In this document: positions 50,921 through 64,000 of the stretch, piece by piece
How positions within the stretch are numbered: the stretch's first letter is position 1
Layout of the letters: the number at the start of each line of letters is the position of its first letter
Assembly: GCA_964244255.1 (NCBI GenBank)
Contig: CAXTIC010000016.1
Location: 7,695 to 71,694 of the forward strand
Direction: 5' to 3'
DNA: 64,000 nt
DNA from: an uncultured Lichenihabitans sp.
GTDB taxonomy: Bacteria; Pseudomonadota; Alphaproteobacteria; Rhizobiales; Beijerinckiaceae
Translations under genes and position numbers: made by a program
The notes under the pieces: generated by a model
The model's input: the letters and a program-made list of their open reading frames with translations, nothing else
What the model was told of the DNA's origin: nothing
The model's database searches: none

Positions 50921-51889
50921 TCAGTCCCCGCACACCATTTGGAACAGCGCCGTCCGCAGCGGCGGCCCGTAGTCCGACTGCCGGAAATAGGCGGCCTGCG
51001 GCAGCGGGTCGACGTCGGGCGCGATCTCGTTGTTGCGCGGCAGCGGGTGCAGGACGCGCGCTTCGGGGCGCAGGCGGCGGGCGGTCGCACCGTCGAGCAC
51101 GAAGCGGTCCTTCACGCGGTCGAACAGGCCCTCGTCCGTGAACCATTCCTTCTGCGGGCGCGTCATGTAGACCACGTCCACCTTCGGGAGGAGGTCGTCC
51201 CAGTCGACGGTTTCCGTGAAGGGCACGCCGCGGCCGGCCAGATAGGCCTTGATGTCGTCGCGCACGCGCAGTTCCGGCACGGACACGAAGTGCAGCCGCG
51301 TGCCCGGGTATTGCGCGATCAGGTAGGCGAGCGAGCGCACGGTGCGGCTGAAGCGGCAATCGCCCACGAAGGCGATCTCGACCCCCTCGACGCGGCCCAC
51401 CTCGCGCTCGATCGTGTAAAGGTCGAGCGCGGCCTGGGTCGGATGCTGCTCGGCGCCGCAGCCGGCGTTGAACACCGGCACCGGAAAGCCGGCGCGCGCC
51501 ATGCCGTGCGACACGAGCGCGGCGGCGTCGTCGCGCGGGTGCCGCAACACGAGCGCGCGGGGGCCGTAGCCCGCGACCACGCGGGCGGTGTCCTCCAGGA
51601 CCTCGCCCTTGGCGGCGGATGAGAAGCGCCCCGCGTCCTCCGTGTAGATAACGTCGGCGCCGAGGCGCATCGCCGCCAGCTGGAACGACATGCGGGTTCG
51701 CGTGCTGGGCTGGTAGAACAGCATCACCACCACCCGGCCCCGAAAGATGCGCTCGGGCGCCCCGGTAAGCAGCCGGGTCGTCCGTTCGGCCAGTTCGGCG
51801 AACACGTCGGGGGTGAACTGTTGGGCCTCCAGGATCGAGCGCCCCCTGAGCGGCGCCGCGGCGCACCGCGCCGTCGCGCGCCCGGTCAC
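50921..51889 (-). CDS. pyrB: aspartate carbamoyltransferase-like catalytic chain
   Basis: GTG 51889 (GTGA overlap with the upstream stop). It has the carbamoyl-phosphate motif FYQPSTRTRMSF, SSAAKGEVLEDT, HPTQ, GDCRFSRTVRS, MTRPQKEWF and VLHPLPR. Confidence 0.85.
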   Translation of the reverse strand: MTGRATARCAAAPLRGRSILEAQQFTPDVFAELAERTTRLLTGAPERIFRGRVVVMLFYQPSTRTRMSFQLAAMRLGADVIYTEDAGRFSSAAKGEVLEDTARVVAGYGPRALVLRHPRDDAAALVSHGMARAGFPVPVFNAGCGAEQHPTQAALDLYTIEREVGRVEGVEIAFVGDCRFSRTVRSLAYLIAQYPGTRLHFVSVPELRVRDDIKAYLAGRGVPFTETVDWDDLLPKVDVVYMTRPQKEWFTDEGLFDRVKDRFVLDGATARRLRPEARVLHPLPRNNEIAPDVDPLPQAAYFRQSDYGPPLRTALFQMVCGD

Positions 51890-52650
51890 GATGCCGCCCG
51901 CATGGCCCGTGCCAGCCGCGGCCAATCGCGTTTCGGCGACCACGCGACGTTGTTCGCCGCGACGTCGTCGGCGACGCACGGATCCGATTGGTCGTACTGC
52001 CCGAAAACATGCCGAACGACGGACACGACCGGCAGGTCGAGCCCGGGCCGCGGCACGTACGCGGTGTCCACGAGGGCCGACCGGTTGAGGATGCACAGGA
52101 CGCCGGCCACGCGCGCCCCCCGTGCCTCGATCAGCGCGACGAGTTGGGCCGTCGTGCTGAAATTGTTGCACACGTCCTCGACGATGAACCAGCTCTGCCC
52201 CGGCGCGGGCTCGTGCCGGTCGAACACGAGTTCGGTCGCCTCGCGTGACGCCGCGCCCGCCGCCGCGACGATCCTTTTCTCCGGGTAGATGTAGTCGCGC
52301 CCGGCATCGAGCGCGAGCTGGTAGGCGAAGGCCTTGCCGCCTTCGGGCGCCCCGCAATACCCGGCCGCCGCGTCGAGCGTCGGGCCGAGGTGCCGGCCGC
52401 GCATGGCGTCGGAGAGGCGACGCGAGAAGGCGCGCAGCAAGCTGGGGTGCCGCTCCGCCCGTGCCACGTTGACGTAAACCTCGCCCACGTACTGGCGGCC
52501 GTCCGCGTCGCGGCCGGCGTAGCCGACGAGCGGACCGAGACGCTTCCCCGCCGCGTCCTTCGGGGTTTCGTAGAAGGCCCCGCACGCCTTCAGCCAGTCG
52601 AGCGGAGCGTCGCGATCGGCGCCGTCGCCGATCCGTTCCCAAGGCCGCAT
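51886..52650 (-). CDS. type I phosphoribosyltransferase (orotate PRTase-like)
   Basis: Trimmed to ATG 52650 (MRPWERIG). It has the PRPP-binding loop SWFIVEDVCNNFSTTAQL and lies between pyrF and the ATCase-like gene. Confidence 0.75.
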   Translation of the reverse strand: MRPWERIGDGADRDAPLDWLKACGAFYETPKDAAGKRLGPLVGYAGRDADGRQYVGEVYVNVARAERHPSLLRAFSRRLSDAMRGRHLGPTLDAAAGYCGAPEGGKAFAYQLALDAGRDYIYPEKRIVAAAGAASREATELVFDRHEPAPGQSWFIVEDVCNNFSTTAQLVALIEARGARVAGVLCILNRSALVDTAYVPRPGLDLPVVSVVRHVFGQYDQSDPCVADDVAANNVAWSPKRDWPRLARAMRAAS

Positions 52651-52660
52651 GGACGAGCCC

Positions 52661-53509
52661 CTACCTGTAGGCGTTGACGGCGTCGCCGAGCCGCCGCGTT
52701 TCGGCGCGGGCCGCGGACGCGAAGTCCTCGCCCGACGACGCGTAAAGGATGGCACGGGACGCCGCGATGATCATGCCGCGCCCCCGCGCGTCGCGCCCCG
52801 CCGCGACCGTGGCGCGCAGGTCGCCGCCCTGGGCGCCGATGCCCGGGATCAGCAGCGGCATGTCGCCGGCCAGCGCGCGCACGCGGGCGAGTTCGCCCGG
52901 CACCGTCGCTCCGACGACGAGGCCGCAATTGTCGTTGCCGTTCCAGCCGGCGGCGACCGTGCGCGCCACGGCCTCGTAGAGCCGCTCCGGGCCGGCGCCG
53001 ACGGCGAGATCCTGGAACTCGCCGCCCCCCGGGTTCGAGGTTCGGCACAGCACGAAGACGCCCTTGTCGCGCCGCGCGAGGAACGGAGCCAGCGCGGCGC
53101 CGCCGAAATAGGGCTGGACCGTGACGGCGTCGGCGCCGAGATCGTCGAAGGCGTGCCGGACGTAGCCTTCGTTGGTCGAGCCGATGTCGCCGCGCTTGGC
53201 GTCGTAGATGACGGGGATGTCGGGGCCGATCTCCCGGACGCGGGCCATCAGGCGGGCGAGGACCGCCGCGCCCGCCGCGCCGAGCGCTTCGAAGAAGGCC
53301 GCGTTGGGCTTGAACGCGCAGGCGAGGTCATGGGTGGCCTCGACGATCGCCGAACAGAAGTCCAGGACGGACTCGGCCCGCGCCTCGGCGCCGTCCCCGG
53401 CCTTGAGGTGCCGCGGCAGCCGCTCCCAATCGGGATCGAGGCCGACGCAGAGGAAGCGCCCCATGTCCCAGCGCGCCTCGACGAGGTCACGGAAGACGGG
53501 GCGCGTCAT
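52661..53509 (-). CDS. pyrF: orotidine 5'-phosphate decarboxylase (long, type 2 form)
   Basis: 282 aa with LCVGLDP, FKPNAAFFE, IYDAKRGDIGST and VTVQPYFG motifs. Confidence 0.9.
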   Translation of the reverse strand: MTRPVFRDLVEARWDMGRFLCVGLDPDWERLPRHLKAGDGAEARAESVLDFCSAIVEATHDLACAFKPNAAFFEALGAAGAAVLARLMARVREIGPDIPVIYDAKRGDIGSTNEGYVRHAFDDLGADAVTVQPYFGGAALAPFLARRDKGVFVLCRTSNPGGGEFQDLAVGAGPERLYEAVARTVAAGWNGNDNCGLVVGATVPGELARVRALAGDMPLLIPGIGAQGGDLRATVAAGRDARGRGMIIAASRAILYASSGEDFASAARAETRRLGDAVNAYR

Positions 53510-53525
53510 GCGGGAACGCCACGGG

Positions 53526-54611
53526 TCATGGCAGCACCCGCCAGGCGAGCACCTCGCCCGCCATCATCGGCACGAGGCCGTCTCCGAGGGCCGGGACGGC
53601 GACCTCCTCGGGCACCCGCCAAGGCTCCCGCACGAGCGTCACGGTCCCGGCATTCAGGGGGAAGCCGTAGAACCGCGCCCCGTGCTCGGCCACGAACGGT
53701 TCGAGCTTGTCGAGGGCGTCATGCTCGGCGAAGAACGCCGCGAGCAGCGGCAGCGCCGCCAGGGTGTTCCAAACCCCGCAGGCCGAGGCCGCCGCCTCCT
53801 TGTCGCGCTTGAGGTGGGCCGCGTCGTCGCCTCCGTAGTAGAAGCGCGGGTGGCCGGACAGCAGCGCCTCATGCAGCGCGGCGCGATCGGCCCGACGCTT
53901 CGGCTGCGGCTTGCACCCGCAATGGACCCGCATGAGGCCGCGGCTCGCGGAACTGTAGCCCAGCACGTCGTCGAGCGTGGTGAGGAGGTGGTGCACCGTG
54001 ACGCTGGCGCCGACGGTCTCGCCCTGCGCCGCCACCCAGTCGACGGCCGCCCGGCTCGTGATGTGTTCGAGGCTGACGCGAAGGCGCGGAAACCGGCGGA
54101 TCACGTCGTCGAGGATGTCGAGGAACGCCGCCTCCTTGTCGAGCCCCTCGACGGCCTCGTCCGGGTGCTCGCCGTGGAACTGCACCACCATGCCGCAGGC
54201 CTCGGCCGAGGCGAGCGCCGGCGCGATCTTCGCATAGTCGCGCACGCCGTTGCCCGAATGCGTCGTCACCATGAACGGATAGACCTTGCCGACGCGCACG
54301 CCGAGGTCGGCCGCCTCGCGAACCGTACCGGCCGTCGTCGCCTCGGTGATCTGGATCGTCGGCACGGGGTCGAGGGTCGTGACCGGATCGACCGCGCGGG
54401 CGCGGGCCAGGATGCGGTCGCGGTAGCCGAGCGCGTCACGGCCCGTCAGCACGGCCGGGACGATGTTGGGCTCGGCCAAGATGCGCGCGCGCCATCCCGC
54501 CCGGATGAACACGGGCACGAGCGCGTCGAGCAGGGCGCCGTCCCGGAAATGGGCGTGCCAATTGTCGGGCGTCCGGATCGCGAGACGCCGGGGCTCCCCG
54601 TCGTTTCTCAC
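53526..54611 (-). CDS. pyrC: dihydroorotase-like amidohydrolase (homodimeric PyrC type)
   Basis: GTG 54611 (GTGA overlap with the upstream stop). It has the metal ligands PDNWHAHFRDG, a carboxylated-Lys context VGKVYP, and FHGE, LEHITS and GGDDAAH. Confidence 0.85.
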   Translation of the reverse strand: MRNDGEPRRLAIRTPDNWHAHFRDGALLDALVPVFIRAGWRARILAEPNIVPAVLTGRDALGYRDRILARARAVDPVTTLDPVPTIQITEATTAGTVREAADLGVRVGKVYPFMVTTHSGNGVRDYAKIAPALASAEACGMVVQFHGEHPDEAVEGLDKEAAFLDILDDVIRRFPRLRVSLEHITSRAAVDWVAAQGETVGASVTVHHLLTTLDDVLGYSSASRGLMRVHCGCKPQPKRRADRAALHEALLSGHPRFYYGGDDAAHLKRDKEAAASACGVWNTLAALPLLAAFFAEHDALDKLEPFVAEHGARFYGFPLNAGTVTLVREPWRVPEEVAVPALGDGLVPMMAGEVLAWRVLP

Positions 54612-55531
54612 GCGGCCCGGCTTTCGGGCGCGGGCGCGGTCCCGAGGGCACGCGCGCCGACCCGCTCCCGCACGTCGCGCCGCGCGATGGCGGTCGGCGC
54701 CCAGGGGGTGCGCAGGTGGATGGCGCCGTAGCTCACCGCCTCGGCCCCGAAGGCGCGCACGCGGGCGAGGTCGTCGAACGCCATGATGGAGGGCGCGATC
54801 ACCGGCAGCGTCCGGTCGGCCGCGACAGCCGAGGCCGCCCGCCAGTTCGCGGCTTGCGCGGGCTTTCCCGATACCCCGCCGCCGCCGCCCCCGACCGCGC
54901 TCTCGAGGCGCCACAACGGGCTGCGGCGACCGGGGAACACCCGCTCCCACGGCACGCTGTTGAAGGCCACCGCTTCCGCCGTGCCGACGAGGGCACGCGC
55001 GATGGCCCGGCAGTCCTGCGCGGCCGAAAGTTTCACGATCAGCGGGTGGCGGGACGCGGCCTTCACGGCGCGGAGCGCGCCGACGACCGCCTCCGTTTCG
55101 GGCAGCCCGTGGCCGGCGTTGGGGCAGGACGGGTTCACTTCGAGGCCGACGAGGGCGAACGGTTCGAGCAGGCGCGCCATGGCGACGAGGTCGTCGTCTG
55201 CGCCGAAAATAGAAGCGACGACCGGCACGCGAGGGGTGTCGAGCCCGGGTCCGACCTCACGGCACCACCAGTCGATCCCCGGATTGGTGAGCCCGACCTT
55301 GTTGACCGCGCCGCCCGGCAGAAGGCGCACGCAGCCCCATGGGGCGTGCCAGCGCAGGTTGCCGCGGCGGGGATGGCGGGTCAGCGTCTTCAGCACGACG
55401 GTGAACAGATCCGGCCGGATCAGCCGCGCCGCCACCATCGGCCGTTCCCACGGCCAGCCCCGCCCGTCGAAGGCGAGCGACCCGCTGGCGACGACGTGGT
55501 CGAGGACGTGGCCGTTCGATAAGGCGATCAT
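54608..55531 (-). CDS. pyrD: dihydroorotate dehydrogenase family flavoenzyme (soluble class 1-like, Cys base)
   Basis: 307 aa with no N-terminal membrane helix. It has KTLT...GN, VNKVGLTNPG, EVNPSCPN (catalytic Cys context) and a GGGGVSGKP FMN-phosphate loop. Confidence 0.8.
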   Translation of the reverse strand: MIALSNGHVLDHVVASGSLAFDGRGWPWERPMVAARLIRPDLFTVVLKTLTRHPRRGNLRWHAPWGCVRLLPGGAVNKVGLTNPGIDWWCREVGPGLDTPRVPVVASIFGADDDLVAMARLLEPFALVGLEVNPSCPNAGHGLPETEAVVGALRAVKAASRHPLIVKLSAAQDCRAIARALVGTAEAVAFNSVPWERVFPGRRSPLWRLESAVGGGGGGVSGKPAQAANWRAASAVAADRTLPVIAPSIMAFDDLARVRAFGAEAVSYGAIHLRTPWAPTAIARRDVRERVGARALGTAPAPESRAA

Positions 55532-55656
55532 GGCAGGTCCGGGGATTGCGCGCGAGCGGGCTCGGTATAACCCTCCCCGGGCCGCTTGGGAATGCGCCGT
55601 CGGGCTTCCGCCACGGGTCGGTCCGGTACGCGGCTTAGGCTCCAGACTCAGTCATA

Positions 55657-56914
55657 GTACATCGTTTCCATGGATCGACTCCTATAACGTCGCCTCGGCG
55701 ATTTTGTATGTGCAGTGATGGATGAGCGGGTCGCGGTCGATGTCTTCGAGGTAGGCGAGGATGCGGGCTTTGAGTTCGGCTTTGGATGCCACTCGGATGT
55801 GACGGAGCATCGAGCGCGCCATCCTGGAGAAGAAGCCCTCGACGAGGTTGAGCCAGGAGCCGTGCTGGGGGTGAACACGAAGGAGAACCGGCCCTCGGGC
55901 TGGCTTTCGATCCATGCCTTGGTCTCCTTGGAGAGGTGCGCCGAGTGGTTGTCGAGGATCGCCTCGATGGCGGTCTCGGCCGGGTAGGCGGCATCGGGCT
56001 TCTTGAGGAAGCCGACAAATTCGCGCGACCGGTGGCGGTCCTCGACGCTGGCATGCACTTGACCGGTCAGCAGGTCGATCCCGGCCAGCAGGCTCAGCGT
56101 GCCATGGCGCTTGTATTCGTGGTCGCGTGCGAACGCCGCGGGCGACCCTGGTCGCGGCGGCAGATCGGGTGCGGTGTTGCCGATCGCCTGGATGCCGGGC
56201 TTCTCGTCATACGAGATGATGGCACCAGGGGGGTCCGGCTGCTCACTCTCGCGCAGCAGGGCGACCTCGCGATAAACGCACAGCACGTCGGCCATCTTCG
56301 CCTCGAACGCCTCGTCGCGCCGTTCGAGACAGTGGCGCACCTTGTGCGGCTTGACCTCCTGGCGCGCGAGTATCTTGCAGACCGTGCCCTGCACGATGGT
56401 CGCCAGGCACGGATGCCCGGCCGCCTGCGCGTGCTCCCGCGCGTGACGCGCCAGCAGGCGCGTCGTCCACAATTCGTGTGGATACCCCAGGTCTTTCGCT
56501 TTCTGGCACGCGAGCGACACCAGCCAGGCGCGCGCCTCCGGCGTGATCACAGGCGCCTTCCCGGGTCGCGGGCTGTCGTCGAGGGCCGCCATGACGCCCA
56601 GCTGTTCGGCACGACGCACGCATCGCCGAACCGTGTGGCGCGTCACCCCGATCTGCTCGCCCACCGCAACGGAAGACGGATTGGCATGATAGGCCAGAAG
56701 CATGCGCGCCCGCTCAACCCGGACTGCCGCCTCGGTGCGCGATCGAGCGATCGCCTCCAATCGGGCCAACTCATCCGACCCGATCGAAAACTCCACAACC
56801 CGCCGGGGTGCCGCCATCATGCCCATCCGCCACATTGACCCCCAGACCGCTTACAACACGCCCCCCGACCAAGGGAATCCCATTTCGCGGATCACCTCCA
56901 TGGAATCGATGTAC
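55657..56914. mobile_element. IS630-family insertion sequence (about 1.26 kb) with TA target-site duplication
   Basis: The terminal inverted repeats are GTACATCGTTTCCATGGA (55657-55674) and TCCATGGAATCGATGTAC (56897-56914), matching at 17/18 positions. Each is flanked by TA (55655-55656 and 56915-56916). Confidence 0.8.
55682..56835 (-). pseudogene. IS630-family DDE transposase, frameshifted near the C-terminus
   Basis: ORF 55648..56835 carries the HTH and DDE regions (YDEKPGIQA...LDNHSAH). The conserved end HGSWLNLVEGFFSRMAR...KAELKARI lies in another frame (ORF 55682..55915). The shift is at a C5 run near 55868-55872 (ttcaccccc/agcacggc). Confidence 0.8.
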
Positions 56915-56980
56915 TAGCATCGCCGCATCGAGCGGGTCGATGTCCGGCGAACCCGGTGACGCGCCGACCCGGACCCTCCC

Positions 56981-57766
56981 ATGCCCCGTTTCGCCGCCAA
57001 CCTGTCGATGATGTTCACCGAATGGCCGTTCCTCGACCGCTTCGCCGCGGCCGCGGACGCGGGCTTCGAGGCGGTCGAGTTCCTGTTCCCCTACGAACAC
57101 GCGGCCGAGGCGATCGGCGCGCGGCTCGCCGCGCACCGGCTGGAACAGGCGCTGTTCAACCTGCCGCCGGGCGACTGGGACGCGGGCGAGCGCGGCATCG
57201 CGGCCCTGCCCGGCCGCCGCGACGCGTTGGCGCGCTCCGTCGAGACCGCGCTGCGCTACGCCGAGGCGACCGGCGCCCGCGCGCTGCACCTCATGGCCGG
57301 CATCGCGCCGGCCGACGATCCGGCCCACCAGGCGGCTTACGCGGCCGCGCTCGATCTCGCGTGCGGACGGGCGGGACCCGCGGGCGTCGCCATCGTGATC
57401 GAACCGATCAACCGGCGCGACATGCCGGGCTATTTCCTGAACGACTTCGACCGCGCCGCGGCCCTCATCCGCCAACTCGGGCTGCCGAACCTCAAGCTGC
57501 AGTTCGATATCTACCACCGTCAGATCCTGCACGGCGACGTGACGCGCGGGCTCGAAGCGGCGCTGGACGTGATCGGCCACGTGCAGGTCGCCTCGGTACC
57601 AAAGCGCAACGAGCCCGGCACGGGCGAACTCGACGACGCGCGCGTGTTCGCCTCGCTCGACCGGATCGGCTACGACGGTTTCGTCGGCTGCGAATACCGT
57701 CCCGCCGGCGCGACGCTCGAGGGCCTCGGCTGGTTCGCGCCCTACCGCAGGGCGCGGACCGGCTGA
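56981..57766 (+). CDS. hyi: hydroxypyruvate isomerase family (Hyi/OtnI-like) TIM-barrel protein
   Basis: 261 aa. MPRFAANLSMMFTEWPFLDRFAAAADAGFEAVEFLFPY plus IEPIN and QFDIYH motifs. Confidence 0.9.
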   Translation: MPRFAANLSMMFTEWPFLDRFAAAADAGFEAVEFLFPYEHAAEAIGARLAAHRLEQALFNLPPGDWDAGERGIAALPGRRDALARSVETALRYAEATGARALHLMAGIAPADDPAHQAAYAAALDLACGRAGPAGVAIVIEPINRRDMPGYFLNDFDRAAALIRQLGLPNLKLQFDIYHRQILHGDVTRGLEAALDVIGHVQVASVPKRNEPGTGELDDARVFASLDRIGYDGFVGCEYRPAGATLEGLGWFAPYRRARTG

Positions 57767-57788
57767 TGCGGACGACGCGTCGCGACCC

Positions 57789-58751
57789 TCACAGCCCGAG
57801 GCTGGCGCGGACGGGTCGAGGCCAGTCGCGCGCCTCGATGCCGTGCGTCGCGAACAGCGCCACCGCGAGACGGTCCATGCCGAAGGCCACGCAGCCCGTG
57901 TGGACGCGGGCGCCGGCCGCGTCGCGCAGGTCCCACGCCTCGCCGAAATGATCGCGGTGGTTGTTGAAACTCATGCAGGCGGTGGGCGCGTCGGCGGAGC
58001 GGACCGGCACCAGGAGCTCGAATTTCAGCGCGTCGCGGACCTGCATCGCGGCCATCATCTGCCCCGTGCGGCCGAAGAACGGGTCGCTGGCCTGCTCGAC
58101 CGTGTGGGGCAGGCCGAGGGCGTCCGCCATGCCCCCGGCGCGACCGAGCCAGCGCGCGCGGAACGCCGCGACGTCCTCCGGCGCACCGATGCTTACGAAC
58201 TCCCGCATGCGGAAGGATTGGAACCGGTCGATGTCGCGCGATGGTTCGCGGCGGAAACAATCACTGGCGATGTCGAAAGCGAGGCCGCCCTCCGGGACCG
58301 GCCCTCTCCCGGCCACGATCGGGTACACGGGGTAGCATGCCGCCGGCGTCAGCACGAGGTCGCTCGATCGCAGCGACGCGGTCCAGTCGCCGCCGGCGTC
58401 GTGGCGCCCCACCGCGGCGCGGATGTCGTCCTCGGTACCGGCGAGCGCGCACACGCAGCCGAGGAGGTTGGGGAAACTCTTGAGGTAGCCCGAGCGCTCG
58501 AGCGTCCGGCGGCTCATCACCGGGGGGAAGCGCAGCACCTCCGTACCGTGCTCGCGGTGGCGCGTGATGAAGGCCGCGAGGCTGTCCACGACGGCCTCAT
58601 AGGCGCCGGTGCGTCCATACACGCCGTCGACCCCCGTCGGGTGGAACAGCGCCTCGATGGCGGCCGCCCCCAGCGGATGGCGGTCGTCGGTCGCGTCTCG
58701 CGCCCGCACGGGTGCGTTCATCGCCAAGGCTCCCAGATGTAATCGCGACAC
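57789..58751 (-). CDS. amino acid--[acyl-carrier-protein] ligase (truncated class II, methanogen-type SerRS homologue)
   Basis: 320 aa. It has a class II aaRS catalytic core without a tRNA-binding arm (RFPPVMS.. LERSGYLKSFP, FRMREFV, GMDRL). The candidate Zn triad is Cys139/Glu184/Cys287 (TPAACYP, REF, HTGCVAF). It starts 4 nt after the ACAD-like stop. Confidence 0.75.
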   Translation of the reverse strand: MSRLHLGALAMNAPVRARDATDDRHPLGAAAIEALFHPTGVDGVYGRTGAYEAVVDSLAAFITRHREHGTEVLRFPPVMSRRTLERSGYLKSFPNLLGCVCALAGTEDDIRAAVGRHDAGGDWTASLRSSDLVLTPAACYPVYPIVAGRGPVPEGGLAFDIASDCFRREPSRDIDRFQSFRMREFVSIGAPEDVAAFRARWLGRAGGMADALGLPHTVEQASDPFFGRTGQMMAAMQVRDALKFELLVPVRSADAPTACMSFNNHRDHFGEAWDLRDAAGARVHTGCVAFGMDRLAVALFATHGIEARDWPRPVRASLGL

Positions 58752-58755
58752 ACCT

Positions 58756-59988
58756 TCAGTCCACCAGCGAGTCCGGCACGCCGGCCATCAGCGCCGACAG
58801 GCCGAGGCTCGCCAGGATCCGGTCGTTGTTGATCATCAGCGGCGAGGACAGGACATCGCGCAGCAGCCGCCCCATGCTGGCCTCGCCGTCGTTGCGGTAG
58901 CCCGACAGCCCGCACGCCCGCAGGCAGGCGAGGACGGTGGCGACCGCCAGTTCCGAGCTCTCGACCTTGAGCAGCGTCATGTTGGTCTGGAACTCCAACG
59001 AGCCGAGCGCGGCCTCGTCACCGAGCGCCCGCTCGTAGCGCCGCGCCGCCGCCGCCACGAGGTCGCGCAACGACCGCAGCGAGGCCTGCGCCCGGGTCAG
59101 GTGGGACGCGCCGGGCGGCAATTGCCCCTTGTTGCGCCGGGCCGCGACCCGGGTGAAGGCCTGAGCGCGGGCGACGGCCGCGGCGGCGATGCCGGCCCAG
59201 GCGCCGGACCAGAACACGTGGGCGCTCGGCGTCATGGTGTGCGCGTGGATCTTGTCGTAGGGCACGGGCAGGATCTGCGCGCGCTCCGCATCCGCCGTGA
59301 GCTTGAAGCCCGTGCTGCAGGTGCCGCGCATGCCGAGCGTGTCCCAGCTTTGCCCGCGCTCGAGCGTGTAATCGCCGCGCAGGAGAACCACCAGGACCTG
59401 GTCCGAATGCGCGGCGTCGGCCTCGCGGCGGGCGGTCGTGACGATGCCGTCCGCTTCCGCGCCGTAGGAGATGACGGTCGCGTCGCGGTCGAGCGTGATG
59501 CGATGGCCCGCGTGACCGACGGCCGCGTCGCTCGCGCGGACGTTGCCGCCGTTGTGGCCTTCCGTCGTCGAGGACGCGAGCAGCCATTGCTCGGCGCAGA
59601 GCCGACGCAGCATGCGGGCGTGCCACGCGCTGTCGACGCCGTGGCGGCAGACGCAGGCAACCTTGATCTGATGCATCGCGAAGATCATCGCGGTGGCCGA
59701 ACACGCACGCCCCAGCCGATAGCATACGTCGGCCACCTCCGAAGGGCCGGCGCCCTCTCCGCCGAGGTCGCGCGGCACCGCGAGGCCCATGAGGCGCTTG
59801 TCTTTGAGGAGGGCGACCGCTTCCCGTGGAAAGCGCGCCTCGCGGTCCACCGCGTCGGCGTGGGCGGCGGCGACGCTTGCGACCGCATCGGCGCGGACCC
59901 GGACGCCCTCGACGGCGACTTGCGGCGGCGACGGCGCGACGCGGTCGGTCGCGAACGCCTGCCTGCTTCGAACCTCGACGCTCGCCAT
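58756..59988 (-). CDS. acyl-CoA dehydrogenase-family flavoprotein
   Basis: 410 aa with the three-domain ACAD pattern (..LMGLAVPRDLGGEG.., SSTTEGHNGGNV, DTLGMRGTCSTGF, C-terminal helical domain). Confidence 0.85.
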   Translation of the reverse strand: MASVEVRSRQAFATDRVAPSPPQVAVEGVRVRADAVASVAAAHADAVDREARFPREAVALLKDKRLMGLAVPRDLGGEGAGPSEVADVCYRLGRACSATAMIFAMHQIKVACVCRHGVDSAWHARMLRRLCAEQWLLASSTTEGHNGGNVRASDAAVGHAGHRITLDRDATVISYGAEADGIVTTARREADAAHSDQVLVVLLRGDYTLERGQSWDTLGMRGTCSTGFKLTADAERAQILPVPYDKIHAHTMTPSAHVFWSGAWAGIAAAAVARAQAFTRVAARRNKGQLPPGASHLTRAQASLRSLRDLVAAAARRYERALGDEAALGSLEFQTNMTLLKVESSELAVATVLACLRACGLSGYRNDGEASMGRLLRDVLSSPLMINNDRILASLGLSALMAGVPDSLVD

Positions 59989-60054
59989 ACTATGCCCCCG
60001 TTCGCCTCACCGTCCCGGCTTTCCTTTGAAATACGGTGAACCCCGTCGTCTGCG

Positions 60055-60185
60055 AGGAATGAAAGTCGATAAAGGTAAATTTACAATGCGAGTAATTCAT
60101 AGTTAATTATGTGTTAAATCATAGACAGAAACATCACTGTCGTCCATTAAGGTGAATGTCTGAAATTATCACTAAAACGTTGCAT
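60055..60185. promoter_or_regulatory. strongly AT-rich divergent control region with direct repeats AAWTCATAG spaced 22 bp apart
   Basis: ...gaaagtcgataaaggtaaatttacaatgcgagtAATTCATAGttaattatgtgttAAATCATAGacagaaac... It lies between the ACAD-like gene (minus) and the ACP gene (plus) and contrasts sharply with the GC-rich flanks. Confidence 0.4.
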
Positions 60186-60268
60186 TGCCGGAGCGGTCGC
60201 GCGAAGGAAACGTAGCAATCGGACCTGCGAACCATGCTGCGCGGGGCCGCCTTACCGCAGGTCCTTCG

Positions 60269-60553
60269 ATGCCGCAAAACCCCGACCCACGCCGCCTGGA
60301 CAAGGTCACGACCCTCGTCACCGGCATCCTCGCGAAATACCCGTCGTCCGGCCGGGTCGACCCCGATGGCGACCTCGCGCGTGTCGGCATGTCCTCGATC
60401 GACATGGTCGAGCTGATGCTCGCCGTCGAAGCCGAATTCGACCTCACCATTCCGCCCGGGGACATCACGCTCGCCAACTTCAGCTCCATCCGGTCCGTTG
60501 AGGCGCTCGTGGGACGGCTGCGACCGCGCGCGGAGGATGCGGCGGCGGCCTGA
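60269..60553 (+). CDS. acyl/peptidyl carrier protein
   Basis: ORF 60185..60553 trimmed to ATG 60269. It is 94 aa. The phosphopantetheine-attachment context is LARVGMSSIDMVELMLAVEAEF. Confidence 0.8.
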   Translation: MPQNPDPRRLDKVTTLVTGILAKYPSSGRVDPDGDLARVGMSSIDMVELMLAVEAEFDLTIPPGDITLANFSSIRSVEALVGRLRPRAEDAAAA

Positions 60554-60576
60554 CCGCGCTGAAAGTCCCGCCCGCC

Positions 60577-62142
60577 ATGGCGATCGAGATCCGGGTCGAT
60601 CGACGCCGCTTGCGGCGATGGCATGTCGTTCTGCGGGATCGGCTCGCGCACGGACTGCGCGGCAGCGCGGTCCGGCTGCGCGCGGTCGACGGCGAGGGTG
60701 CGCCGCCGCCGGCCTTGACCGCCCTGCTCGCGCTCGAACGTATGGTCCTGCACGGCGCACGCCCCGCCCTCTGCGACCGTCTCGACCCGGCGGCGGCCGC
60801 GCCCGATGGGACGACCGAGACCGCCACGCTGGTGATCGATTGTTCCGGCGCCGCGGACACGTCCCTCCCGGACGAGGGCGTCGCCTGCTTGCGGCCGCTG
60901 TTCGACGGCGTCCCCGGCGAGGGTGCGATGATGGGGACCCTCATGGCCGGGTCGACGCCCGGGATCGCCATCGAGGACTGCCGCTCGGGTGCGGTCCTCG
61001 CCACCGCGCGCCCCTCCGGGGAAGCCGCGAAGGGGCTCACGGGCGGCGTCGAGGCCGTCACGTCCCGCACGATGGCTCTGATCGAACGGGTCGTGGTCCG
61101 GCCCGGCCCGCCCCTCCTCCCCGCCTGGCCGTCGCTCCGCGCGCGGCCGCGACGCGTCTCGTTGGCCCGGTTGGCCGGGAGGAGCCTCGCGCATGCGGCG
61201 GTGCGCGCCATCTACCGCCTGTGCTTCAACGCACCCCATTGGCGGATCGGGTGGCGCTTCGTGGAGGGGCCGGGCGCGATCGAGCGCGGCACGCTCGCCG
61301 GCCCGCGCTGGAACAGCCTCGCCGATCCCGGCAGGAGCTTCTTCGCCGATCCGTTCCCCATGGTGCGGGACGGGCGCTGCTTCGTGTTCTGCGAACATCT
61401 CGATCACCGCGCCGGCAAGGGCGTGATCGCGGCGATCGAATGGGGGCCGTCGGGCCCGAAGGGCGGACCGGAGGTCGTCCTCGAAGAACCTTGGCACCTG
61501 TCCTACCCGTTCCTGATCGCGCACGAGGGCGCGCTGTGGATGGTGCCGGAAAGCGCGCTGACGGGCGAGGTGGCGCTCTACCGCTGCGTCGCCTTCCCCC
61601 ACCGCTGGGAGCGGGTCTCGACCTTGGTGGCCGGCGCCGAGGTCTCGGACGCGACGGTCTTCCGCCACGACGGCCGGTTCTGGATGATGTCCGCGACGCG
61701 CCGAGGCTACGGCGGCTATTCCGACACGCTCGCCATCCATCATGCGGCCGACCTTCTCGGGCCGTGGGAGGAGCACGAGGCGCGGCCGGTTCTCATCGAC
61801 GCCCTGGCGGCGCGGCCCGGCGGCGCCGTCGTCCGCCACGACGGCGCGCTCTGGCGACCGATCCAGGATTGCACCGAGGGCTACGGCAAGGCGCTGAGTG
61901 TCGCCCGGATCGACCGCCTCGACACGAAGACCTTCGCGCAGACGATCGTTCACCGCCTGGAGCCCGGCCGCTCCTGGCCCGGCACGCGCTTGCACACGCT
62001 GAACCGTTGCGGCCGGCTCGAATGTATCGACGGGTCGGCCCTGGTGCCGCGCCTGCCCGCCTTGCGTCCGGCCTTCGCGCCCCGCGATCCGGCCGGGGAC
62101 CCCGCCGCCCCGACAGCCGCCGAGACGCACCGGGCGGGCTGA
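60577..62142 (+). CDS. two-domain protein with an uncharacterised N-terminal domain and a C-terminal beta-propeller of the GH43-like / bacterial GINT1-like type
   Basis: 521 aa. The C-terminal half has HWRIGW, FFADPF, LSYPFL..EGALWMVPE, FRHDGRFWMM and RPIQDC motifs, which I associate with proteins annotated as the glucosamine inositolphosphorylceramide transferase family. The N-terminal ~200 aa is possibly formyltransferase-like. It starts 23 nt after the ACP gene. Confidence 0.6.
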   Translation: MAIEIRVDRRRLRRWHVVLRDRLAHGLRGSAVRLRAVDGEGAPPPALTALLALERMVLHGARPALCDRLDPAAAAPDGTTETATLVIDCSGAADTSLPDEGVACLRPLFDGVPGEGAMMGTLMAGSTPGIAIEDCRSGAVLATARPSGEAAKGLTGGVEAVTSRTMALIERVVVRPGPPLLPAWPSLRARPRRVSLARLAGRSLAHAAVRAIYRLCFNAPHWRIGWRFVEGPGAIERGTLAGPRWNSLADPGRSFFADPFPMVRDGRCFVFCEHLDHRAGKGVIAAIEWGPSGPKGGPEVVLEEPWHLSYPFLIAHEGALWMVPESALTGEVALYRCVAFPHRWERVSTLVAGAEVSDATVFRHDGRFWMMSATRRGYGGYSDTLAIHHAADLLGPWEEHEARPVLIDALAARPGGAVVRHDGALWRPIQDCTEGYGKALSVARIDRLDTKTFAQTIVHRLEPGRSWPGTRLHTLNRCGRLECIDGSALVPRLPALRPAFAPRDPAGDPAAPTAAETHRAG

Positions 62143-62505
62143 CGCGGGGCCGCCGCAAACGTCCGTCGATCCGCCTGCCCCCCGCGCCGCGTAGGCCATG
62201 AAATGTCGCCGGGGGTTCAAGAGCGTCGACGGGCGGACCGTGACGGGACGCCACGGCGCTCGCCGCGATGCCGAAGCGGCGGCGGCCCGCCGTCGCGCCG
62301 ACGATCGTCAGCGTCGAGGCCAGGCGCCGCATGGCGCGTCTGTAGCCGTCGACGATCGGGCGGCGCGTGGCCAGACTCCGGCGTCACTTTGCCCACCCTC
62401 GGCGGCCTTCGGCTGCGGTCGGGAGCGACCGCGCCGTCGCGACGGGCCCGGCAAGCCTCGTCAGCGGAGGCGGAGCCGTCAAGCCTCTGACCGAGTTTGT
62501 TAGCC

Positions 62506-62548
62506 CCAAGTTGGAATGTCCCCTTTGTGCGAAGTTGGAATGTCCCTT
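62506..62548 (+). repeat. left terminal repeat pair of the IS
   Basis: CCAAGTTGGAATGTCCCCT (62506-62524) and CGAAGTTGGAATGTCCCTT (62530-62548). Confidence 0.7.
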
Positions 62549-62576
62549 GTGACGGCTTGGCTGTTTCGAGGGGACG

Positions 62577-63838
62577 ATGCGCGAAGAGGTTTTGGGGATG
62601 AGCGCGTCGGAGCGCGATCGTGCGGTGTTGGTTCGGCGTCACATCGATGAGGGTCTGAGCCAGCGCGAGGCCTCGGAGCGGCTTGGCATCGGGGTGCGGC
62701 AGTTCAAACGTTTGGTACAGGATTGGCGGCGCGAGGGTGATCCTGGCCTGATGTCTCGACAGCGCGGACGTCCGTCGAACAACCGACTGGCGGGGGATCG
62801 TCGGGCCGAGATCGCAGCCCTTTTGCAAGGCAAATACGAGGGCTTCGGCCCGACGCTGGCGGCCGAGAAGCTCGCCGCCGTCGAGGGGATCACGGTGTCG
62901 GCCGAGACGCTGCGCCAGATGCAGATCGGCCTCGGCCTGTGGCGACCCAAGAAGCGCCGGGTGAACCGGCTCTTCCAACTGCGCGAACGCCGGCCGCGGT
63001 TCGGCGAACTGATCCAGATCGACGGCAGCCCGCACGCCTGGTTCGAGGGACGCGGCCCGCGCTGCGCACTGATCGTGTTCATCGACGACGCCACGGGGCG
63101 CCTGACGTCCCTGCGGTTTGCGCCCGTGGAAAGCACGCGGGCCTATCTCGAGGCGCTACGCGACCACGTGCTGGCCAACGGCCGTCCGCTGGCTTTCTAC
63201 TCGGACCGGCACGGCATCTTCCGGGTCAACGCCAAGGACGCGGCGGGCGGCGACGGCAAGACCGAGTTCGGCCGGGTCGTGGCACGGCTCGACATCGCCT
63301 CCATCCAGGCCTCACGCCACAGGCCAAGGGCCGCGTGGAACGCGCCAACCAGACGCTGCAGGATCGGCTCGTCAAGGAGCTTCGGCTGATGGAGGTCTCG
63401 TCCATCGACGCCGCCAATGCCGTCCTGCCGCAGTTCGTGGCGGCCTGGAACGAGAAGTTCGCCGTCGAACCGCGCCAGGATGCTGATGCGCATCGTCCCT
63501 GGGACGATACGCCGGACGCCCTCGACGATAGACTGGCGCGACGCGACGGGCGGACGCTGTCGAAAGCTCTGACGTTCAGATCAGATGGCACGATCTATTG
63601 TGTAAAGACCAAAGACGCAGGCATCGCCTTGCGGGGCGCCAAGGTCGAACTGCGTCATCGGCTCGATGGCACCATGACGGTCCACTACAAGGATCGCACC
63701 CTCCCCGTCACGCCGGCCCGAACCTACCCGGTGCCCGACCCCGCCGAAGACGAAAAGACCATCGATCTGCGCATCGACCACATCGTGGCGGCCCAGCGCA
63801 CCGCCGCCCTCACCATGCTGGAGGTCGGGCATGGATAA
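62577..63838 (+). pseudogene. ISNCY-like rve-domain transposase, frameshifted
   Basis: ORF 62577..63389 carries the HTH and the first half of the catalytic core (LIQIDGSPHAWF...FIDDATG...YSDRHGIFRVN). The continuation TPQAKGRVERANQTLQDRLVKELRL... is in ORF 62939..63838. The frames switch near 63320-63335. Confidence 0.7.
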
Positions 63839-63917
63839 CGCCGGCTCCCTACGGCGCTGTGGGAGGGCGCGCGTCGCCGGCGTTACCCACACCCTCGCGT
63901 CCCGCCCAGAACCAGAC

Positions 63918-63962
63918 AGGGGACATCCCAACTTGGGAGAACTAGGGGACATTCCTACTTCG
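63918..63962 (-). repeat. right terminal repeat pair of the IS (inverted)
   Basis: Reverse complements CCAAGTTGGGATGTCCCCT (63918-63936) and CGAAGTAGGAATGTCCCCT (63944-63962). Confidence 0.7.
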
Positions 63963-64000
63963 CGTGTCCGGGGTTCAGAGACATGTGAGACGGGTTGCGT

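Follow-up and report, generated by a model that had tools for sequence, protein, structure and literature searches.

In D-alanylation by DltA and DltC, and in the addition of glycine to lipid A by AlmE, AlmF, and AlmG of Vibrio, an amino acid and ATP yield an aminoacyl-S-carrier protein, from which the amino acid passes to an acceptor in the cell envelope. Reviews describe a further group of loading enzymes, ligases related to seryl-tRNA synthetase (SerRS), which do not charge tRNA but attach glycine or alanine to the phosphopantetheine arm of a carrier protein from their own operon. These reviews give the biological role of the ligases as unknown, and a review from 2022 still says so for the fate of the aminoacyl-S-carrier protein. 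The closest described locus to the one considered here is bll0957-bll0958-bsr0959 of Bradyrhizobium (PDB 3MEY, 3MF1, 3PZC, and 4H2S to 4H2Y), for which the ligase and the carrier protein have been characterized and crystallized and the final product is equally unknown; in B. diazoefficiens, bll0958, adjoining bll0957, is annotated as an acyl-CoA dehydrogenase (ACAD) (PMC10888616). We compared this locus and its relatives with a 64,000-nucleotide stretch of DNA (the window) from an uncultured Lichenihabitans sp. (GenBank assembly GCA_964244255.1, contig CAXTIC010000016.1, positions 7,695 to 71,694), in which genes for a SerRS-like ligase and an ACAD-like flavoprotein diverge from a pair of genes for an acyl carrier protein (ACP) and a 521-aa two-domain protein (Table 1). 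The first-pass annotation of the window had joined all four genes into one pathway, a proposal that was partly supported: it appears right on the ligase, flavoprotein, and ACP trio, which was already known, and wrong on the fourth gene. With a probability of about 0.7, we suggest that two unrelated things lie side by side here, a Bll0957-type cassette and an orphan of a decaying polysaccharide locus, and that the adjacency of the ACP and 521-aa genes would represent inherited synteny and not a four-step pathway.

The ligase matched the NCBIfam equivalog model NF005479, "amino acid--[acyl-carrier-protein] ligase," with 449 bits against a cut-off of 357. Its best match in the PDB by far was Bll0957 of Bradyrhizobium japonicum (3MEY/4H2S), a protein of the same length, with an E value of 4e-132 and 66% identity over 296 aa. 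Alignment with methanogen-type SerRS models was limited to the catalytic C-terminal part (approximately positions 303 to 504 of 518; residues 225 to 506 in the alignment to PDB SerRS), in agreement with the earlier claim that the ligase has no tRNA-binding domain. The residues Cys139, Glu184, and Cys287, which had been picked out by their spacing as a Zn triad, were verified and aligned with Cys131, Glu176, and Cys279 of Bll0957. By these matches, the protein is a genuine amino acid:[carrier protein] ligase of SerRS descent, and its Zn triad is intact. ATP-dependent loading of a carrier protein has been shown for the orthologue and would be expected of the window ligase, for which glycine is, by orthology, the likely substrate. 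The ligase open reading frame (ORF) lies 4 nt downstream of the ACAD-like ORF, but because homologues begin at Met11 (an MNAP start), the true gene is probably 57789-58721, encoding 310 aa and leaving a gap of 34 nt. A literature search for later functional work on these ligases, or on glycyl-S-carrier intermediates, returned nothing relevant.

The neighborhood of the ligase was analyzed in a ligase-anchored scan of metagenomes that yielded 80 loci (654 kb), in which loci were counted as informative if enough DNA surrounded the anchor to show the partner gene. An ACAD homologue lay directly upstream of the ligase gene in 55/55 informative loci, as it does both in the window and at the bll0957 locus, and an ACP gene was found in 38 of the 43 informative loci. 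The same trio was present on long contigs (including L081 to L083 and L173 to L175), and alpha- and betaproteobacteria and a Priestia strain carried it on plasmids and chromids. The window carrier protein matched the Pfam family PP-binding (9e-9) and, below cut-off, the PRK07081 ACP model (9e-12); its homologues were 53 to 63% identical and were encoded divergently from the ACAD-ligase pair in related loci, and, to judge from the gene names, bsr0959 likewise encodes a small carrier protein and lies on the other strand. On these counts, the ACAD-ligase pair and the divergent ACP gene form a tightly conserved unit in which the ligase has the flavoprotein as an obligate partner. The trio is not new but, by its gene order and the ligase identity, a copy of the studied Bradyrhizobium trio. 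The grouping of the ligase with a flavoprotein and a dedicated carrier protein bearing a GMSSID motif, as first annotated, was thus borne out.

In contrast to the constant core, the genes that accompany the trio differed from clade to clade. A second module was found near Bll0957-type trios in 17 of 25 informative loci and comprised a 90-aa PP-binding-like protein, an AMP-binding ligase of approximately 460 aa, a FabG-like short-chain dehydrogenase/reductase (SDR), and a divergent 289-aa protein without a family match (for example, L082 11387-14664 and L174 12357-15654). The window differs in having the 521-aa gene after the ACP gene, and a search of it for the AMP-binding, SDR, 90-aa, and 289-aa genes found none of them. 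In another clade, on replicons of Burkholderia, Caballeronia, Mycetohabitans, Shinella, Azospirillum, and Rhizobium, the order was ACP-ACAD-ligase-DUF1839, with ligases 45 to 53% identical to that of the window. All genes of these operons are codirectional, in contrast to the divergent arrangement in the window, and DUF1839 was followed by a GH2 gene in Burkholderia, Caballeronia, Mycetohabitans, and Shinella. Such five-gene operons, with overlapping or closely spaced genes, are conserved on beta- and alphaproteobacterial replicons and were seen at L169 5545-11483, L170 5357-11460, L172 5528-11300, and L087 6509-12660. A GT4 glycosyltransferase gene and a priming transferase gene lay near a Burkholderia locus of this clade; in Mycetohabitans, an Acyl_transf_3 gene was found upstream and an exosortase-type double hydrolase gene downstream, and a hydrolase gene of the same kind was found downstream in Azospirillum. 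DUF1839, a papain-like protein with C(T/S)H residues, is a plausible candidate for the off-loading enzyme in that clade. The window was searched for DUF1839, the exosortase-type double hydrolase, WecG, GT4, flavin reductase, dapD, and YidB, and none was found; it also has no GH2 gene. Since the partners vary by clade (DUF1839 with or without GH2; the ACP, AMP-ligase, and SDR module; an ATP-grasp set in Priestia; polysaccharide genes in one lineage), the comparison suggests that the trio is a portable cassette supplying a carrier-bound building block to different pathways.

The Priestia example, a Firmicute version of the trio, was on a plasmid of Priestia aryabhattai (L171 5088-13647), where the order was acpS (holo-ACP synthase)-ACP-ACAD-ligase-DMT transporter-ATP-grasp ligase-hydrolase-alaP (alanine permease)-alr (alanine racemase). 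This gene content hints at an alanine-derived small molecule.

The flavoprotein matched the Pfam family Acyl-CoA_dh_N above cut-off (1e-11, 45 bits), the middle domain scored below cut-off (17.5 bits), and the ACAD C domain was detected weakly and in homologues only. The protein aligned over its full length with ACADs in the PDB (best E value, 3e-13), and its NCBIfam matches, which included dehydrogenases and ACAD-fold monooxygenases, were all far below cut-off. On this evidence, it is a distant, divergent member of the ACAD superfamily. In both clades examined, the ACAD-like proteins carried an invariant S(S/A)P(L/I)MINNDRI in place of the IYEGT-type motif. The Ile of MINNDRI aligned with Glu376 of medium-chain acyl-CoA dehydrogenase, and hence the canonical catalytic Glu is absent; the alternative position of the catalytic Glu, of the isovaleryl-CoA dehydrogenase type, was assessed by eye only.

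The first-pass annotation had cited as precedents the prolyl-S-peptidyl carrier protein (PCP) dehydrogenases and the zwittermicin route. RedW and PigA, and ZmaG and ZmaI of zwittermicin biosynthesis, do resemble the window in that an ACAD fold stands beside a loading enzyme and a carrier protein. However, the window protein scored far under the cut-offs of the prolyl-PCP dehydrogenase models (RedW, 3.7e-8 and 32.6 bits versus 650; PigA, 1.2e-6 and 27.9 bits versus 500) and has no Glu at the canonical position, and its likely substrate, glycine, cannot be alpha,beta-desaturated. Oxidation by the ACAD-like enzyme is a reasonable expectation. Because glycine has no beta-carbon and Ile replaces the catalytic Glu, we speculate that amine oxidation at C-alpha-N, or N-oxygenation, is more plausible than alpha,beta-desaturation. 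The Dlt and Alm systems share with the trio the logic of carrier protein loading, but they use ANL-type adenylating enzymes, have no flavoprotein step, and rely on a dedicated membrane transferase, features not matched in the window. Separately, a flavin reductase gene (PF01613) was seen a few genes away from the ACP and ACAD pair in several loci (L084/L085 6945-10233; L174 6108-6623); at L084/L085, the ACP and ACAD genes were present and no ligase gene was found within the 19-kb locus. If real, this link would favor a role for the ACAD-like protein in a two-component monooxygenase.

In the 521-aa protein, PF24793 (GINT1_N) was the sole Pfam family found, at residues 253 to 476 (2e-37, 129 bits versus a gathering threshold of 27). 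An AlphaFold2 model (pLDDT 84) showed an alpha/beta N-terminal domain, a long linker helix, and a beta-rich C-terminal domain, and Foldseek matched the latter to the five-bladed propellers of GH43, GH117, and GH159 (E value, 7e-8; target-normalized TM score of about 0.5). The likeness to GH43 is in fold only, as the sequence match to PF04616 was below cut-off (20.8 bits versus 32.2). When the N-terminal domain (approximately residues 1 to 175) was modeled alone (pLDDT 86), the top 16 Foldseek matches were all PurN, ArnA, sugar N-formyltransferases, or Fmt, at borderline scores (E value, 1e-3; TM score, 0.40 to 0.44), and no Pfam match was obtained. Across 17 homologues, the domain contained no invariant His, Asn, or Asp, so that the catalytic Asn-His-Asp set is absent and the domain is probably not a working formyltransferase. 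We also considered formylation of glycyl-S-ACP by this domain, as by the F domains of oxazolomycin biosynthesis and LgrA, and dropped it because the catalytic residues are not conserved. The earlier description of a two-domain fusion with a propeller therefore holds as to the two domains and the propeller, and the role in a third step that had been attached to it is not supported. A search of the literature on bacterial GINT1_N proteins found nothing relevant.

Full-length homologues of the 521-aa protein, 45 to 58% identical, were common in Bradyrhizobium, Rhodopseudomonas, Methylocystis, Methylocapsa, Roseiarcus, Lichenihabitans, and Janthinobacterium. We sampled 80 genome loci anchored on this family and scored partner genes within 8 kb. 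A GT4 gene lay directly upstream on the same strand, ending a few bases from the start of the 521-aa gene, in 73 of 77 informative loci; a Wzx-like flippase gene was present in 62 loci, and a gene for a WecG-family transferase was present in 16. An annotated exopolysaccharide (EPS) locus on the Chelatococcus plasmid pCO-6 contains genes for a priming glycosylphosphotransferase, a WecB/TagA/CpsF transferase, GT4, the 521-aa homologue, Wzz/Etk, a polysaccharide export protein, and a flippase, and other plasmid-borne homologues likewise adjoin GT4 genes. The window protein is thus a full-length member of the GT4 and PF24793 pair found in Wzx/Wzc-type EPS loci (Chelatococcus pCO-6, Bradyrhizobium, Rhodopseudomonas, and Methylocystis), but in the window it stands without GT4 and without the other genes of such a locus, and the ACP gene occupies the GT4 position. 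On a Lichenihabitans contig (L001 6436-9548), a 521-aa homologue also stood without GT4, beside a gene for a DAO-type FAD oxidoreductase, and orphaned copies therefore occur elsewhere too.

Co-occurrence of the four genes in other genomes, the lack of which the first-pass annotation had named as refuting its proposal, was scored as adjacency in loci and not as genome-wide presence, and by this measure it failed from both directions. A 521-aa homologue was found in 0/80 ligase-anchored loci, and in 0/23 of those that extended 2 kb or more past the ACP gene. Conversely, the ligase, ACAD, and ACP genes lay within 8 kb in 2/80 of the 521-aa-anchored loci, L025 (Lichenihabitans) and L035 (Lichenibacterium ramalinae). 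The 521-aa family thus travels with GT4 in EPS loci and has no linkage to the trio.

The two exceptions, and their relatives, indicate how the arrangement in the window could have arisen. In L035 and L025, the ligase-ACAD pair diverges from a run of genes in the order ACP, GT4, 521-aa, WecG, and Wzx. In L081 and L173, ACP is followed by WecG and dapD, the WecG proteins being 60 to 63% identical to that of L035, and in L175 ACP is followed directly by dapD. In the window, ACP is followed by the 521-aa gene and a broken ISNCY element, which stands where L035 and L025 have WecG and Wzx. The trio is whole in all five of these loci and in the window, while the polysaccharide genes beside ACP vanish piecemeal; on one contig of a Lichenihabitans metagenome-assembled genome, GT4, 521-aa, and Wzx genes lie approximately 600 kb from the trio and WecG. 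Because the first bases 3' of the ACP stop codon (TGACCGCGC) are common to the window and L035, the gene order in the window is consistent with an L035-like one from which GT4 was lost. An in-frame deletion from GT4 to the 521-aa gene was also considered on the basis of a two-codon likeness (MA... versus MR...), which was too slight to count.

These observations suggest the following model for the cassette. A Zn-dependent, tRNA-independent ligase would activate a small amino acid with ATP and thioesterify it onto the phosphopantetheine arm of the 94-aa carrier protein. The ACAD-fold flavoprotein, genetically locked to the ligase, would then modify the aminoacyl-S-carrier protein, speculatively by N-oxygenation or by oxidation at C-alpha-N, the latter giving an imino- or glyoxylyl-thioester. 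The window does not encode the off-loading enzyme, the candidates in other clades being DUF1839 or the second ACP/AMP-ligase/FabG-like module. The 521-aa gene would encode a cytoplasmic formyltransferase-like/GH43-like protein that normally partners GT4 in Wzx/Wzc-type EPS loci. In one alphaproteobacterial lineage, such an EPS locus sits directly downstream of the ACP gene, and in the window it would have decayed to a single gene, with GT4 lost and WecG and Wzx replaced by the broken ISNCY element. The fate of the aminoacyl-S-carrier protein is a question dating from 2010 that the window does not answer. The comparison does sharpen it: the flavoprotein is an obligate partner without the usual dehydrogenase base, and the off-loading partners differ by clade. 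It also points to culturable strains suited to testing what the cassette does.

Several observations weigh against the separation of the 521-aa gene from the trio. Adjacency is a narrower measure of co-occurrence than presence anywhere in a genome. The ACP and 521-aa genes are on one strand, 23 nt apart, with no terminator-like site found between them in a scan of 5.2 kb, and they are probably cotranscribed in the window. In L035 and L025, ACP lies approximately 40 to 95 nt upstream of the GT4-521aa-WecG-Wzx genes on the same strand, at the head of the polysaccharide operon. Ligase operons of the DUF1839 clade are repeatedly joined to glycan-type genes (GH2, and GT4 with a priming transferase in Burkholderia). 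Finally, the 521-aa ORF is intact and keeps all family-invariant residues, and it is no obvious pseudogene.

Most of these points speak for the alternative that survives best, though an unlikely one, in which the trio feeds the neighboring EPS locus in a Lichenihabitans/Lichenibacterium-like lineage. The glycyl group, possibly oxidized, would pass from the ACP to a sugar or lipid-linked repeat unit through GT4, the 521-aa protein, and WecG, Wzx would flip the product, and the window would hold a reduced version, in the manner of teichoic acid D-alanylation or glycine addition to Vibrio lipid A. Such coupling would account for the codirectional, very close placement of ACP and EPS genes in L035, L025, L081, L173, and the window, whose ACAD proteins are only approximately 67% identical. 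The independent DUF1839 clade adds its links to GH2, Acyl_transf_3, exosortase-type hydrolases, and GT4 with a priming transferase; in a published survey, the gene context of DUF1839 led to the guess that its targets are glycans, and the presence of a FemAB-like Acetyltransf_6 gene in 521-aa loci of Bradyrhizobium is a hint of aminoacylated EPS. However, the trio persists intact where the EPS genes beside ACP have gone one by one, and the two gene sets are approximately 600 kb apart in one genome. None of the 80 Bll0957-type loci contains the 521-aa gene, and one (L133) contains a weak GT4-like match, 26% identical; in 78 of the 80 loci anchored on the 521-aa family, a ligase gene is absent within 8 kb. 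Moreover, no recognizable acyl- or aminoacyltransferase is encoded in the window. The broader proposal that these ligase cassettes are glycan decoration modules, placing a glycyl-derived group on an EPS repeat unit here and doing the equivalent with DUF1839 and GH2 elsewhere, seems to us quite unlikely; if true, it would give these relics of aminoacyl-tRNA synthetases (aaRS) a biological role.

We consider improbable the self-contained, nonribosomal peptide synthetase (NRPS)-independent pathway of four genes that was first proposed, in which the ligase loads the amino acid, the ACAD-like enzyme oxidizes it, and the propeller fusion transfers it to a lipid or glycan. The tight spacing and the divergent-operon layout are what such a pathway would be expected to show, and the fold of the N-terminal domain resembles formyltransferases, a fold that some NRPS initiation modules use on aminoacyl-S-carrier substrates (the LgrA matches). 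However, the four genes fail to co-occur, none of the catalytic places of the formyltransferase-like domain holds an invariant His, Asn, or Asp, the propeller is a fold of the glycoside hydrolase type and not a known acyltransferase fold, and GT4, the constant partner of the family, is missing in the window. That the ligase is a truncated or atypical SerRS still serving translation is hardly credible: the similarities in its favor are weak (a sub-threshold 21 bits for the class II core model, Pfam tRNA-synt_2b, and 74 bits, versus a cut-off of 611, for methanogen-type SerRS), whereas the N-terminal tRNA-binding domain is absent, the equivalog score places the ligase in the carrier protein ligase family, and Bll0957, with which it shares 66% identity, reportedly acylates carrier proteins rather than tRNA.

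The separation of the cassette from the polysaccharide remnant is thus the reading we prefer, and the layout of the region around them is given in Table 1. The four ORFs, their coordinates and strands, and the gaps between them were as first annotated.

Table 1. Features of the region around the ligase, flavoprotein, ACP, and 521-aa genes (positions are those of the window)
Feature	Position	Strand	Remarks
Amino acid:[carrier protein] ligase	57789-58751	-	320-aa ORF; class II aaRS catalytic core, Bll0957 orthologue
ACAD-like flavoprotein	58756-59988	-	410-aa ORF; bll0958 orthologue; Acyl-CoA_dh_N match
Divergent intergenic region	59989-60268		AT-rich, 280 nt; two sigma-70-like promoter matches
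Dedicated carrier protein (ACP)	60269-60553	+	94 aa, ATG at 60269; phosphopantetheine serine in GMSSID
521-aa two-domain protein	60577-62142	+	Formyltransferase-like N-domain, linker helix, GH43-like five-bladed propeller (PF24793 GINT1_N)
2-Oxo-tetronate isomerase (OtnI/Hyi family), flank	56981-57766	+	NF043033 above cut-off
IS630-family transposase gene, flank	55648-56835	-	NF033545, 1.3e-49, model positions 1-260 of 299; C-terminal part in other frame, 55682-55915
ISNCY-family transposase gene, flank	62577-63838	+	NF033594 positions 4-231 in ORF 62577-63389, 232-363 in ORF 62939-63838

The GC content of the divergent intergenic region falls to 0.64 against a background of 72%. The only two sigma-70-like promoter matches within the 5.2 kb scanned lie in this region, one per strand (60059-60087, plus; 60146-60118, minus). 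An Rfam scan of 55000-64000 at an E value of ≤1 returned zero matches, and so no riboswitch was found in the divergent region; alignment with eight homologous loci revealed no conserved motif there.

The flanks had been annotated as hyi and IS630 on one side and an ISNCY-like element on the other. Both insertion sequence (IS) families were confirmed, but the hyi label was not, as the cut-off was reached for 2-oxo-tetronate isomerase alone (NF043033, 359 bits versus 325; Hyi model, 311 versus 353). This isomerase gene was not seen in homologous loci and lies outside the ligase, ACAD, and ACP system. The IS630 and ISNCY transposase genes are each spread over two reading frames by frameshift interruption, and both are probably decayed. 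Because they belong to different families, the region between them is not a composite transposon.

Abutting the broken IS630 gene, a compact run of pyrimidine-pathway-like genes occupies 50921-55531 on the minus strand. Several of them are too divergent for housekeeping copies: the pyrD-like gene scored 84 bits against a cut-off of 269, the pyrC-like gene scored 259 against 293, and the match of an orotate phosphoribosyltransferase-like gene was very weak (27 bits). The pyrF and pyrB genes of the same run scored over their cut-offs.

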